DNA from: Candidatus Aminicenantes bacterium
GTDB taxonomy: Bacteria; Acidobacteriota; Aminicenantia; Aminicenantales; Saccharicenantaceae
Direction: 5' to 3'
NCBI GenBank assembly: GCA_041320535.1
Contig: JBGLNH010000001.1
Coordinates: 2,106,490-2,170,489 of the forward strand
Length of the DNA stretch: 64,000 nt
Each line of letters opens with the position of its first letter. Positions within the stretch are counted from its first letter, which is position 1. The notes under the pieces are model-generated. The model saw nothing but the letters and a program-made list of their open reading frames with translations. It was not told where the DNA came from and did no database searches. This document shows positions 11,363 to 27,280 of the stretch, in pieces. The position numbers and the translations under genes are program-made.

Positions 11363-11672
11363 TTGTGCTATACTGCCCCGGACAATGAACGGGAGGAAGG
11401 GCTCATTCGAAGAGCGATCTTGGCCCTCGCGGACGGGACCGTCCTCGAGGGCGTAGGTTTCGGCGCCGTCGCCAAAGTCGGGGGGGAAGTCGTTTTCAAC
11501 ACCGGGATCGTGGGCTACCCCGAGAGCGTCACCGACCCGTCCTACCACGGCCAGATCCTCTGCCAGACCTACCCCCTCATCGGCAATTACGGCGTCGATC
11601 CCGCCTCCTTCGAGTCCGAGCGGCCCCGCATCGCCGGGTACATCGTCTCGGAGCTCTGCGCCCGGCCCTCCA
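11363..11672 (+). CDS. carA: Carbamoyl-phosphate synthase small subunit, N-terminal ~95 aa only; start codon unclear
   Basis: [63 protein letters not shown] is the conserved CarA N-domain. It breaks after ..SELCARPS at ~11672. Confidence 0.75.
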
Positions 11673-18419: not shown

Positions 18420-19378
18420 ATGAACGTCCGCATCGTCGGCCGCGTCCTCGGCTTCCTCCTCCTCTTCGTGGGCCTGTTCATGGCCCTGCCGGCGCTCTTC
18501 GCCTGGCACTACGGCGGCGACGACCTCCGGGCCATCCTGATCTCGGCGGGATTGACCGCGGCCGCGGGGGCCGCGCTCGTCGTCGTCTTCCGGGCCAAGG
18601 GCGAGATCCTGGTCCGGGACAGCTTCGCCATCGTCAGCCTGGGGTGGCTCCTGGTCTCCGCGTTCGGCGCCCTGCCGTTCCTCCTCTCGGGCGCCATGCC
18701 CTCGTTCGCCGACGCGTTCTTCGAGAGCATGTCCGGCTTCTCGACGACCGGGGCCAGCGTCCTCGCCCGGGTCGAGGACCTGCCGCACGGGCTGCTCTTC
18801 TGGCGGAGCCTGACCCACTGGCTCGGCGGCATGGGCATCATCATCCTGTCGCTGGCCATCCTGCCCCTGACCGGGGTGGGCGGCACCCAGCTCTACAAGG
18901 TCGAGATGCCCGGGCCCATGCCGGACAAGATCGCGCCGCGCGTCCGCCGGACCGCCACCACCTTGTGGGGGGTCTACGTCCTGCTGACCGCCCTGGAGAC
19001 GCTGCTCCTCCTTCTCGGCGGCCTCGACCTCCACGAGGCGCTCTGCCAGTCGTTCGGGACCATGGCCACCGGCGGATTCTCGACGAGGACCGACTCGATC
19101 GGCGGGTTCGGCAGCCTCTTCGTCGAGGCCGTCGTCGTCGCCTTCATGCTCGCCGCCGGGACGAACTTCACCCTGCATTTCCACGCCTTGCGGGGGAAGG
19201 TCTCGTCCTACTGGAAGAGCGAGGAGTTCAGGTTCTATCTGGGGATCGTGGCCGTCTTCGCCGTCCTGCTGACGGTCGACAACGTCGTCGCCGGGACCTA
19301 CAAGGCGGCCGAGGCGGCCCGCCACGCCGTCTTCCAGACCGTCTCCATCACCACGACGACGGGATTCGCGACGGCGAT
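18420..19378 (+). CDS. trkH: Trk potassium uptake membrane subunit TrkH, N-terminal ~320 aa (truncated)
   Basis: [36 protein letters not shown] and [13 protein letters not shown]. The reading frame then continues without a stop into rpoC sequence. Confidence 0.8.
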
Positions 19379-19384
19379 CGTCAC

Positions 19385-23108
<3,724 letters not shown>

Positions 23109-25183
23109 CGGCGGTCGCGCTGGCCGCCGCCGGCGCGGCCGCGTGGCTCTGGATCGTCCCCTGCCTCCAGCCGCCGCGCCGCGAAGGGCCGCCCCTCGTC
23201 GCGGTCCTGTACGCCGTCAACAACACCGGCGACAAGGGCCTGGACGGCGAGCTGCGGTGGGGCATCGCGCACCACCTGAGCACGTTCCTCAACCAGTCCC
23301 GGTATCTCCGGGTCCTGCGGCAGGACCGCCTGATGCAGATCCTCACGGACATGGGCAAGCTCGACGAGGAGTTCCACCTCTCCAAGACGCTGGACAGGAT
23401 CTCGGAGGCCACGAACATCGGCTATTTCATCCTGCCGAGCTTCGCCAGGACGGGCGACGACCTCTGGGTCAGCTCGTCGGTGGTCCGGGCGAGGACGGAC
23501 GTGGCCATCGGCGAGCCCGACACCGACAAGGGGAACAAGGACCGCGATCTCTTGGCCATGCTGGAGAGGCTCAGCCAGAAGGCTAAAGCCAAGCTCGACC
23601 TGTCGCCCGAGGAGATCGCCGGCGACTTCAACCAGAGCCTCGACCGGATCACGACGACCTCGCCCGAGGCCCTGCGCCACTACACCGACGGCGAGAAGCT
23701 CTACGCCCGGAGCGACTTCGCCTCCAGCGTCAAGGCCCTGGAGCTGGCGGTCCGCGAGGACCCCGGCTTCGCCATGGCCTACCTGAGAATGGCCGACAGC
23801 TACGAGTATCTGGGCGACTACGCCAAGCGGATGGCCGTCCTCCAGAAGGCCCAGTCGCTCACGGACCGGGTGTCCATCAGGGACCGCTATCTCATCCAGG
23901 GCTACTCGTCCTCCGTCCTCGACGAATCGCCCGCCGCGGCGATCGAAAGCTACCGCAAGCTGATCGAGCTCTATCCCGACGACAAAGAGGCCCGCGGCTT
24001 CCTCGGGGCCATCTACCGCAATCTCGAGGAGTGGGACGAGGCCCTCGCGGAGTTCGACCGGATCCTCGAGCTCGATCCCGAGGACTCGATCGCCCTGGAG
24101 AACAAGGCCTTCATCCATACGGCCCTGGGCCGCTACGACAAGGCCGTCGAGATCTGCCAGGACCGGCCCGGCGCTTCCCGGGAGAACCCCTTCTTCGTCA
24201 GGCAGGCCCCTCTCGTCCACCTCATCCGGGGCCGCTTCGACCTCGCCGCGCCCGCGCTCGAGAAGGCCGCGGCCCAATTGCCGGAAAGCCCGGACATCCT
24301 CGCGCTTCAGGGCCACTTCCATCACCTCCACGGCGATCTCGCCGCCGCGGAGAGCCTCTACGCCCGGCTGCGGGAGACCGGCGAGTCGCCCGAAGCCGAG
24401 AGGCCGGACTTGAGGGGAAGGATCTGGTCCGCCTATCTCTCGGTCCAAAGAGGCCGGTTCGGTCAGGCGCTGGACGACATCCGAAAAGGGACCGAGCTGG
24501 CCCGCCGCTCGCGCCTGATCTACGACGAATACGACCTGCTCCTGCTCCAAGCCCGGATCGAGCTCCGCCTCGGCCGCTGCGAGGAGGCGGCTCGAACCCT
24601 GGGGACGGTCTCGGCGCTGGAGCGGGACACCCCCGTCTGGATGGTCAAGCGGTCGGTCCTGTTCCTCCGGGGCCTGGCCGAGGTCGGGGAGGGCCTGCTT
24701 CTCGAAGCGAAGCGCACGGGCGAGGAGCTGCGCCTGGCCCTGGAGCGGTCGGGCCCCCGCCATCAGATGAGGAGCCACGACTACCTCCTGGGTCGGATCG
24801 CGCTGGCGGAGGGCCGGTCCGACCAGGCCATTCGTCATTTCGAGCGGGCCCTGGCCTCGCTGCCCCGCCAGAGAGAGGTCAGCGACGAGCAGGCCTTCTT
24901 CATGGACGGGTTGGCCGACGCGCTCTATCGGGCGGGCCGGTGGCGCCGGGCGGCGGAAACCTGCCGCCGGATCGCCGCTCTGACGACTGGCCGGCTGAGA
25001 TGGGGCGATCTCTACGCCAAGAGCTTCTACAGGCTGGGCAAGATCCACCGGAAGACCGGCGACGCCACGGCGGCCGCGAAGGACTTCGAGGGATTCCTGC
25101 GGCTCTGGGAGAACGCCGATCCCGGGCTCCCGGAGGTCGTGGAAGCCCGCGAGCAGCTCGCAGAGCTGAACAAGGGCCGCTAG
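23109..25183 (+). CDS. TM-anchored TPR-repeat protein, N-terminus missing (resembles the C-terminal part of TPR-containing sensor kinases)
   Basis: [18 protein letters not shown] segment, then [33 protein letters not shown]. Multiple TPR-like repeats follow ([17 protein letters not shown].., [30 protein letters not shown]..). Natural stop at 25181-25183. Confidence 0.7.
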
Positions 25184-25186
25184 GTT

Positions 25187-26350
25187 CTAGCCGGCGCTTT
25201 GGCTTCCCAGCCTGCCGAGAAGCCGCCGCCTGGCCGCGGTAAGGATCCTCGCTCTCCGGCACCCGTCGCCGGAGATCCGCCCGATCTCGCCCGAGGCCAG
25301 CCCGGCGGACAACGGGCATACCCAGCACCCTTCGACGTCGGCGCACGTCTCGCAGGGCCCCGCCGGCGTCGAGAAGCGGTCCATCCGGAGCCGGCCGTAA
25401 GCCGGGATCGTCGCCGCGTAGGCCGCCGGCGGGTCCTTGGCGAAGGTCTCGACGTCTCCGAAACAGAATTCCCGCGGACCCGAGGTCCCCGATCCGTCGC
25501 GCCGGTAGTGCGCGAAGACGGCGCAGCCCCAGATCGTCCCCTGGGCCGAGACGGCCATCCGGTCGACGCCGGCCGGGCAATAGCGGATCCCGGGGCGCGC
25601 CTCCCCGGCCAGGGAGGCCCAAGGGACTTCGCGCGGGTCATCGAAACGGGAGACGAGAAGGTCCGCCACGCGGTCCATCTCCTCCTCCAGCCGGAGCAGG
25701 GCGGCCGGCGGCCACGGGGACTGGGGGGCGAAGGTGATCTCGAAGCGCGGCACTCCCAGCCCCAGGAGGAGCTCCACGGACCCGGAGAGGAGGCCGATCG
25801 TCTCGGCGGTGAAGACGCTGTTGGTCTCGAGCGACAGCCGCGGATCGTCGAGGACGCGCCGGACGACCCCGGCCAGACGGTCGCCGGTCCCCGCCTTTCT
25901 GGAGACGTCCTGGGCCAGCCCGTCGAAGCTCAGCTCGATCTTGAAGCCCTCGCGGGCCAGGAACTCGAGGGTCTCTCCGTCGAGCAGGCTGCCGTTGGTG
26001 ACGACCGAGAACGTGATGCCGCGGCCGTCCGGCGGCGGCACGGAGCGGAACCGTTCGACGGCCGATCGGACCGCGTCCAGCTCGAGGAGCGGTTCGCCGC
26101 CGTAGAACGTGACGAGGCAATCCCGGTCGAGGTAGGGCCGGAAGATATCGACGGCCCGGGCCAGCGCGGCCGGGGCCAGGCGGTCCGTGCCTCGGCCTTC
26201 GTAGCAGTAAGAGCAGTCGAAGTTGCAGCGGTCGGTCAGGATGAAGGCCAGGTTCTCGAACCGGGCCGCCTCGATGGAACGCGCCCTGAAAAGGCGGGGG
26301 CGTTCGAGTCGCCCGGACCGGCGCGGGGGTTCCCCACGCGGACCCCTCGA
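25187..26350 (-). CDS. Radical SAM enzyme with SPASM-type C-terminal Cys cluster (peptide-maturase-like); start undefined
   Basis: FILTDRCNFDCSYCYEG (CX3CX2C) lies at ~26200-26230. The C-terminus carries CPAGVDRMAVSAQGTIWGC...GPCETCADVEGCWVCP. No ATG, GTG or TTG is in frame between the upstream ORF stop and the Cys motif. Confidence 0.8.
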   Translation of the reverse strand, partial: SRGPRGEPPRRSGRLERPRLFRARSIEAARFENLAFILTDRCNFDCSYCYEGRGTDRLAPAALARAVDIFRPYLDRDCLVTFYGGEPLLELDAVRSAVERFRSVPPPDGRGITFSVVTNGSLLDGETLEFLAREGFKIELSFDGLAQDVSRKAGTGDRLAGVVRRVLDDPRLSLETNSVFTAETIGLLSGSVELLLGLGVPRFEITFAPQSPWPPAALLRLEEEMDRVADLLVSRFDDPREVPWASLAGEARPGIRYCPAGVDRMAVSAQGTIWGCAVFAHYRRDGSGTSGPREFCFGDVETFAKDPPAAYAATIPAYGRLRMDRFSTPAGPCETCADVEGCWVCPLSAGLASGEIGRISGDGCRRARILTAARRRLLGRLGSQSAG

Positions 26351-26364
26351 GCTGTGATCCAGCT

Positions 26365-26610
26365 TTACCTCATCTGCGTCTTCATCGTGCAGCTGCGGCT
26401 CGACGCGTCGTACATGGTGTCGAGGATCGTCTGGTAGTCGTTCGCGGCGGCGTCGAGCCTGGACGGGCTGGAGTGCCGGAAGAAGGCCTCGATCGCCGCG
26501 GCGCGCGCTTCCAGCGAGAGCTTGGGCCATCTCTCCTGCAATTCCCTGAGGTCGATGAGGAATTGCCCGACGCTGTCGAAAAGGGCGGGAAGATTGGTGG
26601 TATGGTGCAT
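26365..26610 (-). CDS. 81-aa protein directly upstream of the radical SAM gene (candidate precursor or partner, or a frameshifted N-terminal domain)
   Basis: MHHTTNLPALFDSVGQFLIDLRELQERWPKLSLEARAAAIEAFF...DTMYDASSRSCTMKTQMR has a balanced, protein-like composition. AGGAGG precedes the ATG and a near-consensus promoter lies upstream. Confidence 0.6.
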   Translation of the reverse strand: MHHTTNLPALFDSVGQFLIDLRELQERWPKLSLEARAAAIEAFFRHSSPSRLDAAANDYQTILDTMYDASSRSCTMKTQMR

Positions 26611-26644
26611 TGGTCACCCCTCCTAAGACTGCGGATCTAAATGA

Positions 26645-26673
26645 CTTATAAGCCAACATTTGAGGTTTGTCAA
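26645..26673 (-). promoter_or_regulatory. Sigma-70-type promoter TTGACA-N17-TATAAG driving the 81-aa ORF and radical SAM gene
   Basis: On the minus strand, TTGACA is the complement of 26668-26673 and TATAAG the complement of 26645-26650. It sits in an AT-rich intergenic island. Confidence 0.6.
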
Positions 26674-26755
26674 GTGCGTATGATAAAATCAGGTCAAGCG
26701 GCAAAGGAACAACGCCCGGGCGATCCGGGCTTGTATCTCAGACAGGAGGGGGATC

Positions 26756-26858
26756 ATGGCCGTCATCATCGGTTCAGTGCTCGTCGCGCTCGGAATCGCC
26801 TATTGCATTATCGGCGCTATCTTCTACTGCAAAACACAAAAAAGCGTGAAGGTGCTTT
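26756..26858 (+). CDS. Small hydrophobic Cys-containing peptide, cut by the junction
   Basis: GGAGGGGG precedes ATG 26756 and the peptide reads MAVIIGSVLVALGIAYCIIGAIFYCKTQKS... Beyond ~26858 the frame is antisense to buk. Confidence 0.35.
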
Positions 26859-26860
26859 TC

Positions 26861-27280
26861 CAAGCGGGCCCAGTCCTCGAGCTCGTCGACGACGACGGGG
26901 TCGACGATGAAGGCGGGCAGGCCGAGCGGGCGGGCGATCTCGTCGGCGATGAGACCGCCCAGGTTGGACGCGTGCTCGCCCTGGACCCCCCGGTAGAGGT
27001 CCTCGAGCATCCGCCCGTTGACCCTGTAGCAGCCGCTCGGGATGGGGTCGAGCAGGCCGCCCCGGCCGACGACGGCCGCGAGGCCCGCCGGGTCGACGGC
27101 CTTCGCGCGGAGCGTCTCGAGCACGATGTCCTTGCGGAAGCCCTTCTGGTCGACGATCCTGGCGAACGGGGCCAGCTCCTCGGCCGAGTGCGCGATGTTC
27201 TCGGACAGGACCTCACGCTCGTCGTCGTAGACGGCGATCTTGGTCGACGTCGAGCCCGGATTGATGATCAGGAGAAGCAT
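26861..27280 (-). CDS. buk: Butyrate kinase, N-terminal ~140 aa only
   Basis: MLLLIINPGSTSTKIAVYDDE...VVGRGGLLDPIPSGCYRVNGRMLEDL...GEHASNLGGLIADEIA...PAFIVDPVVVDELEDWAR, followed by non-homologous sequence. Confidence 0.8.

Follow-up and report, generated by a model that had tools for sequence, protein, structure and literature searches.

The subject of this analysis is a pair of adjacent genes on the minus strand in the genome of an uncultured Candidatus Aminicenantes bacterium, located within a 64,000-nucleotide stretch of contig JBGLNH010000001.1 (referred to here as the window, the coordinates of which are used throughout). The window was taken from a single-record metagenome-assembled genome (MAG) of 2.43 Mb, which is 81.6% complete and high in GC. 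The upstream gene is a small open reading frame (ORF) encoding a precursor-like protein of 81 aa (26365-26610, minus strand; ATG at 26610, TAA at 26367-26365), the C-terminal end of which reads ...YDASSRSCTMKTQMR. The downstream gene specifies a radical S-adenosylmethionine (SAM) enzyme with a SPASM domain, designated here as the maturase, the frame of which is open from 26704 and ends with a TAG at 25187-25189. The part under selection (25187-26308, minus strand) extends from codon -27 to this stop, codons being numbered backwards from the first Cys codon of the cluster motif (26227). The cluster motif itself, CNFDCSYC (i.e. the CxxxCxxC radical SAM motif; 26204-26227, minus strand), is invariant, as are the cysteines in the CxxCx5CxxC block of the SPASM domain (25316-25354, minus strand). 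Neither gene was found to have a paralog elsewhere in the genome.

The small ORF is preceded by a promoter and ribosome-binding site (RBS; 26619-26673, minus strand) consisting of TTGACA (26673-26668), a 17-nt spacer, TATAAG (26650-26645) and AGGAGG (26624-26619). A simple promoter scanner omitted this site, as TATAAG breaks its T-at-position-6 rule. The nearest relatives, L120/L121 (86% identity in the maturase and 91% in the small protein) and L122 (74% in the maturase), share the layout of this gene pair. Both hexamers and the RBS are unchanged in L121 and L122, while the promoter spacer has diverged. An earlier sequence-only reading of this DNA had described the promoter, the AGGAGG element, the 81-aa ORF, CNFDCSYC and CxxCx5CxxC, and each of these was found again where that reading had placed it.

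The maturase was assigned to the radical SAM superfamily based on its match to PF04055 (51.9 bits versus a threshold of 29.5; 1.3e-13), the CNFDCSYC motif and a modelled barrel. Alignment of 54 homologs revealed that the three cluster cysteines and seven auxiliary cysteines are invariant, the latter being C244, C262, C319, C322, C328, C331 and C350 (alignment A4). This seven-cysteine C-terminal extension is that of the SPASM subfamily, from which two auxiliary 4Fe-4S clusters are predicted; the Pfam SPASM model gave no match to the maturase at E <= 0.1. Dozens of NCBIfam models of RiPP maturases (RiPP: ribosomally made and post-translationally modified peptide) match the protein, all far under their cut-offs. 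The best of these is PapB (NF047865; 93.7 versus 340 bits), and the score excludes the maturase from that family. The same applies to the SCIFF maturase family (TIGR03974; 53.4 versus 425 bits), the precursor here having one conserved Cys rather than six, and to anSME (TIGR03942; 35.8 versus 349 bits). The AlphaFold2 model of the maturase (pLDDT 90) has CteB, ChlB and anSME as its nearest structures (TM ~0.7), and its first beta strand corresponds to codons -11 to -3. Neither protein of the pair matched any of the PqqD/RRE (RiPP recognition element), Nif11 or NHLP models, which represent leader and recognition domains that the sequence-only reading had brought up. The maturase is considered to lack an RRE because only 27-45 residues can precede its cluster motif, and the small protein is all-helical in its model; neither protein thus presents a PqqD-like RRE. 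A predicted complex of the two proteins obtained a score of 0.02, which was calculated without controls and was not used as evidence either way.

The ratio of non-synonymous to synonymous substitution rates (dN/dS) of the maturase core was 0.2-0.4 in all three comparisons between the window, L121 and L122, with a value of 0.2-0.3 between L121 and L122, and ~0.5 for the small protein. Within the population, represented by four genomes, the single-nucleotide polymorphisms (SNPs) of the maturase gene comprise two synonymous and no non-synonymous changes. As a separate observation, the maturase genes L014, L015 and L013 (genomes G014, G009 and G032), which belong to a clade with an ATG at codon -13, are split by a -1 frame change that falls exactly at a T9 run (GTTTTTTTTT). 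A T10 run would restore an intact gene, and the run is either prone to slippage or was misread as a homopolymer in long-read sequencing.

The gene pair was shown to recur at no fewer than 73 distinct loci (>= 73), mostly from Aminicenantes. The small ORF adjoins the maturase gene in genome G010 (41% identity in the small protein, 53% in the maturase), in a further eight relatives and at the majority of the 84 loci that were analysed, of which 80 come from metagenomes. For the small-protein family, a profile search retrieved 113 cluster representatives. These are almost all stand-alone proteins of 57-144 aa, and a few longer proteins give local matches only. No Pfam or NCBIfam hit was obtained for any of the 25 members scanned, among which A55, Y67 and C74 are invariant. 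The Cys74 codon (26389-26391, minus strand) presumably specifies the modification site. AlphaFold2 modelled the small protein as three helices (residues 7-66) followed by a low-confidence tail containing Cys74, and a fold search with this model returned no significant PDB match. The Cys-containing tail motif is repeated two to four times in some precursors (L053, L055, L071, L087 and L104), as exemplified by C-P-x-x-x-P-R-R in metagenome loci, which suggests several putative cross-links per substrate in those branches.

In every homolog the small ORF is separate from the maturase gene, a result that bears on one option of the sequence-only reading, namely that a 1-nt frameshift separates an N-terminal recognition domain from its catalytic core. 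This option was abandoned: each small-ORF homolog possesses its own promoter, RBS and stop, the frame of the small ORF relative to that of the enzyme is offset by 0, +1 or +2 depending on the locus, small-protein relatives nearly all stand alone, and a run of four G residues (G4; 26332-26335) between the genes is kept in all four assemblies of this population. Fusion by programmed frameshifting or readthrough was likewise ruled out by the varying offsets and by a stop six codons upstream in L019.

The sequence-only reading had further pointed out that the maturase frame lacks an ATG, GTG or TTG between the small-ORF stop and the Cys motif, the nearest in-frame ATG being located at 26530, and both statements proved correct: downstream of codon -101 (26530), the frame contains no such codon before the first Cys codon. 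The ATG at 26530 was itself rejected as the maturase start, as L122 carries in-frame stops before the motif, and starts at codons -4, -5 or -8 were rejected on the basis of the model, since an enzyme beginning there would lose all or part of its first beta strand; no start at codon -4 or later is viable for this reason. Because there is no canonical start, gene callers truncate the maturase and thereby hide the system. In this genome and three sister MAGs a 284-aa protein (P0002) that starts after the cluster motif was called, and the precomputed Pfam field for this truncated call is empty. In a set of 120 homologous clusters, the motif is missing from 13 gene calls and another eight begin only four residues ahead of it; contig ends may simply account for some of these truncations.

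The nearest relatives display a similar arrangement. The small-ORF TAA and the first Cys codon are separated by 140 nt in the window, 140 nt in L121 and 139 nt in L122. L122 has no canonical maturase start, and L121 has only a GTG at codon -19, which lacks a Shine-Dalgarno (SD) sequence and occupies a position that varies between Ala, Val and Thr. Codons -28 to -14 are constrained, as illustrated by Arg-18, which is encoded by CGT, CGC or AGG. The preceding segment (26309-26364, minus strand; about codons -45 to -28), with a dN/dS of 0.9-2.2, constitutes an unconstrained spacer or a variable N-terminal tail, and the 1-nt length difference of L122 falls inside it. As L121 and L122 also lack good starts and the dN/dS of the core is low, the absence of a canonical start predates the split of the three lineages and has coexisted with purifying selection. 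Three independent MAG assemblies of the population (L145, L146 and L147), which differ from the window by 8-21 SNPs, were available for comparison. In the 140 nt between the small-ORF stop and the first Cys codon, L146 and L147 are identical to the window and L145 differs by one SNP (at 26350). Since these independent assemblies agree in this stretch, the maturase sequence is judged to be a real population sequence and not an assembly error.

Across the family, 57 of the 73 distinct loci have a maturase start exactly 13 codons before the first Cys (ATG in 51, TTG in four and GTG in two), and stops are frequent just upstream of this codon. A different pattern was observed in the sister clade nearest this genome (L019, L043, L044, L046-L051, L092, L110 and L123), in which codon -13 is often not a start codon (ACA, GTA or CTC) and a coding signature extends from about codon -27 through to codon -14. 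This signature includes an invariant Ser-17 with all third-position variants, an Arg-25 encoded by CGC or AGG, and indels in multiples of three. In 12 sequences an ATC or ATT occupies codon -27, and the predicted anti-SD pairing energy peaks for a start at this codon (mean of -7.5 kcal/mol; at or below -5 kcal/mol in 11 of the 12), compared with +0.4 for codon -13. In-frame stops at codon -37 (L044) or -43/-44 (L047-L051 and L092) leave no canonical codon as an alternative start. From the ATC/ATT codons, the SD peak, the coding signature and this lack of an alternative, it was concluded, by sequence comparison, that the sister clade initiates maturase translation at AUC or AUU. Locus L075 carries a stop at codon -31, followed by an ATC at codon -29 and an adjoining CTG at codon -28. 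In homologs P0005 and P0007, ordinary ATG starts are located 25-47 nt after the small ORF, confirming translation of the N-terminal extension.

A comparable situation was found for carA, which in the window (11389-11410, plus strand) starts at an ATT located 8 nt after GGGAGG. In this genome and 14 relatives (compared at loci L126-L140, with another family of the order included), the conserved N-terminus of CarA begins at ATT or ATC, 7-8 nt past GGAGG, and no consistent canonical start codon occurs among them. carA, a housekeeping gene, is an example of a non-canonical start that has been conserved. Conserved non-canonical starts were observed in the sister clade and in carA; in this genome's maturase gene, only a near-cognate codon that is not conserved, a CTG, has an SD sequence. 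A genome-wide tally of non-canonical starts after GGAGG was too noisy at this GC content. In Escherichia coli, AUA, AUC, AUU and CUG initiate at 1-2% of the level of AUG and the remaining codons at 0.1-1%, and infC and pcnB are the only confirmed genes that start with AUU (bioRxiv 10.1101/063800).

The CTG in question is codon -45 (26360-26362, minus strand), which lies 2 nt past the small-ORF stop and 5 nt past a GAGG (26371-26368) within the end of the small ORF. With an anti-SD duplex energy of -6.9 kcal/mol, it has the strongest SD pairing among the near-cognate codons in the maturase frame and appears to be the best start candidate here. A second SD-like element, GAGGGG (26343-26348, minus strand), is conserved in the form of AAGGGG in L121 and L122, where an in-frame ACG (codon -36) follows it by 6-7 nt. 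In the window, an out-of-frame GTG (26337-26335) lies 5 nt past GAGGGG and opens a 33-codon ORF (26236-26337, minus strand), which is not conserved in L121 or L122; a G5 run at 26335-26332 would be needed to bring it into frame with the maturase. The region between the genes was also tested for RNA structure, and this idea was dropped (fold z = -0.67; covariation term ~0).

Taken together, these observations moderately favour a two-gene RiPP-like cassette in which translation of the enzyme most likely begins at a weak near-cognate codon and is coupled to that of the precursor. The adjacency of the genes, their co-conservation and the invariant Cys support the interpretation of the small protein and the SPASM maturase as a RiPP-like pair. 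The 81-aa product would be the substrate, with a folded three-helix body acting as 'leader' and a flexible C-terminal tail bearing Cys74, which the maturase would join by a thioether bond (of the sactionine or ranthionine type) to a nearby tail residue. Thioether formation at Cys74 is proposed as the most likely chemistry because the nearest families perform it (PMC9413430, PMC13692751). Use of a near-cognate codon would yield only small amounts of the enzyme. The position of CTG 26362-26360, 5 nt past the GAGG and 2 nt past the stop, would couple initiation at this codon to synthesis of the highly expressed precursor. Such a weak start would hold the enzyme far below the level of the precursor, and a stoichiometry with the enzyme well below its substrate presumably provides the rationale. 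The sequence-only reading was partly borne out. Two of its proposals are supported: that of a RiPP-like pair, which the conserved gene pair, the invariant Cys and the SPASM enzyme favour while the chemistry stays inferential, and that of coupling between the small ORF and a non-canonical maturase start, for which the exact codon remains a candidate.

Several points weigh against this interpretation. The CTG at codon -45 is not conserved (CCG in L121 and a codon that is not start-like in L122), codons -45 to -29 show no constraint, and codon -27, the presumed start in the sister clade, is a CTC without an SD sequence in this genome. The out-of-frame GTG past GAGGGG would divert ribosomes to the 33-codon ORF, a situation compatible with a gene that is no longer active. 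The proposed chemistry is drawn from a distant family likeness. Furthermore, no protease or exporter genes were detected near the pair in the neighbourhoods examined, so that the modified small protein may itself be the end product, with no peptide being released.

A maturase gene that is silent or newly dead in this population, its intact frame being a remnant, is a fairly unlikely explanation of these features. The start would have been lost through replacement of an ACG or another codon at -36/-37 by GGG, or through a change from G5 to G4 after GTG 26337, and ribosomes recruited by GAGGGG would now read the 33-codon ORF. In agreement with this, the strong SD sequence and GTG 26337 stand one base out of frame beside the G4 run, the in-frame codon at SD spacing is GGG here and ACG in L121 and L122, and a high GC content leaves frames open by chance. 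However, a good canonical start is likewise missing from L121 and L122, which nevertheless display the low dN/dS between them described above, every invariant maturase residue is retained, the SNPs within the population are synonymous, and the precursor promoter and RBS are still strong and conserved. The decay that the sequence-only reading had listed as an option is disfavoured by the purifying selection on the enzyme, although the gene in this particular population may still be switched off. Initiation by another route was considered quite improbable, i.e. 70S re-initiation near codons -27/-28 (CTC), a start at the ATC of codon -16, or a programmed frameshift from the GTG ORF. The onset of constraint at about codon -28, the retention of an ATC at codon -27 in L122 and the low-level activity of non-cognate codons in E. 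coli (0.1-1% of AUG; bioRxiv 10.1101/063800) are consistent with it. Conversely, no SD sequence occurs near codons -27 or -16 in this genome, Arg-18 and Pro-24, upstream of the ATC at -16, are under coding constraint, inspection by eye revealed no standard slippery heptamer in the GTG frame, and the fold of the intergenic RNA is not unusual (z as given above).

An assembly or sequencing indel that conceals a normal start (GTG 26337 in frame) or a fusion with the 81-aa ORF was deemed highly improbable. Such an error might be suspected in a window that is a poorly built concatenation of contigs and in which a single added G puts GTG 26337 in frame, but the four assemblies agree in this stretch, barring the L145 SNP, and L120/L121, from two other samples, have the same gapless 140-nt spacing. 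As the small ORF is also separate in all homologs, with varying offsets and with a family that is almost entirely stand-alone, comparison of the sequences largely refutes this explanation.

The proposed cassette resembles several characterized systems. PapB and CteB share the CxxxCxxC motif, the seven-Cys SPASM domain and, as substrate, a neighbouring small protein that carries a Cys close to the C-terminus. Among PDB entries, CteB (5WGG) matches the maturase best, both by sequence (4e-9) and by fold (TM 0.71-0.74). The links made by PapB within CX3D motifs run from Cys to an Asp or Glu residue (PMC9413430). In contrast to these systems, the maturase described here lacks the ~95-aa N-terminal RRE of CteB, its substrate has one Cys rather than the six of SCIFF and no CX3D repeats, and the leader is a folded three-helix domain without a known model. 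The likeness to anSME (labelled 'AslB' by JGI) consists of a comparable size, the lack of an RRE, a SPASM domain, a similar fold (TM ~0.72) and action on a Cys in a short motif; however, neither a CxPxR motif nor, in the neighbourhoods examined, a sulfatase gene was found, and the maturase has a dedicated partner of 81 aa. ChlB-type three-residue cyclophane synthases (triceptides) are likewise of similar length (~375 aa) and fold (9GM3; TM 0.72), and a leader-bound ChlB structure is mentioned as existing (Ruel 2025, as cited in PMC12912966). Unlike their substrates, the small proteins studied here vary at the residues two past the invariant Tyr, have no aromatic-X-X motif, and possess Cys as the invariant tail residue. 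CrpC, also a radical SAM enzyme with a SPASM domain, introduces ranthionines into a protein, CrpA (PMC13692751). That system is comparable in that the substrate is a small protein instead of a short peptide, with no obvious protease or exporter, and differs in that CrpA is Cys-rich and CrpC has a predicted RRE, compared with a single Cys and no RRE here.

With regard to translation initiation, the closest parallel is that of E. coli infC and pcnB, in which a conserved start other than AUG, GUG or UUG (AUU) follows a good SD sequence, and for which low, IF3-sensitive expression is expected. The present case differs in involving a clade of peptide-maturase genes (ATC/ATT) together with carA, the codon used in this genome being a candidate. 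A broader, tentative proposal, held with somewhat less than even confidence, is that the Aminicenantes maturase clade deliberately uses near-cognate starts, AUC or AUU with a strong SD sequence and CUG or ACG in the branch of this genome, and thereby fixes a low ratio of enzyme to precursor. With carA included, this practice would be lineage-wide and possibly tuned by IF3. If it is true, standard gene callers miss such starts and thereby hide a RiPP-like family with a single Cys from genome mining based on radical SAM enzymes. The pair represents a widespread family of precursor and maturase that lacks a curated model, and the literature searched contained no paper joining Aminicenantes, RiPPs and radical SAM enzymes. 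The conserved ATC/ATT starts of the sister-clade maturases and carA offer a test of how frequently near-cognate starts set expression levels outside model bacteria.

The genes surrounding the pair have to be viewed in light of the assembly, as the MAG record consists of contigs concatenated without Ns. The pair resides on a single contig piece of 3.76 kb (23109-26865), fused at both ends to unrelated contigs; this segment alone matches L145, L146 and L147 at the NCBI (99.4-99.8% identity), over exactly that span. The buk/pta and rpoC genes that flank this piece in the record are therefore not true neighbours of the pair, and gene neighbourhoods across the joints (within 18420-23279, at ~23109 and at ~26865) are not real. 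At the right-hand joint, the butyrate kinase gene (26774-27280, minus strand) breaks off at residue ~141 of 351, just past 26865, and its other half is absent from the whole genome. Within 18420-23279, a TrkH fragment reads in frame into rpoC, and the C-terminus of RpoC is cut.

Convergent with the maturase gene lies a gene fragment for a Ser/Thr kinase-TPR protein (23144-25183, plus strand), which covers the C-terminal 679 aa, i.e. the juxtamembrane region and TPR repeats. The first ~319 residues are missing, and with them the Ser/Thr kinase domain below ~23144. The fragment displays 92% identity to residues 320-998 of the L120 protein, which has Pkinase and TPR domains, and gene-call lengths on sister contigs indicate a full protein of ~1027 aa. 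This gene also neighbours the maturase gene on the P0005, L122 and L145 contigs.

On the other side of the pair, a divergent gene (26756-26860, plus strand) provides the first 35 codons of a 91-aa membrane protein with two helices. The sequence-only reading had taken this hydrophobic ORF to be cut by the end of the block it was shown; it is in fact cut by the contig junction at ~26861-26865. The gene is complete in L121, L122, L145 and L146, with a length of 91 aa in the sister assemblies, and the protein is conserved as a neighbour of 91-98 aa with two hydrophobic helices (L121:33-308 and L122:193-489). It matched no family, the only match being to DUF2371 at E = 0.008, and it could be a member of the cassette, e.g. 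an immunity protein or export helper. Between this gene and that of the precursor, an inverted repeat (GCCCGGATCGCCCGGGC; 26714-26730) is conserved in L121 and largely so in L122, and may represent an operator.

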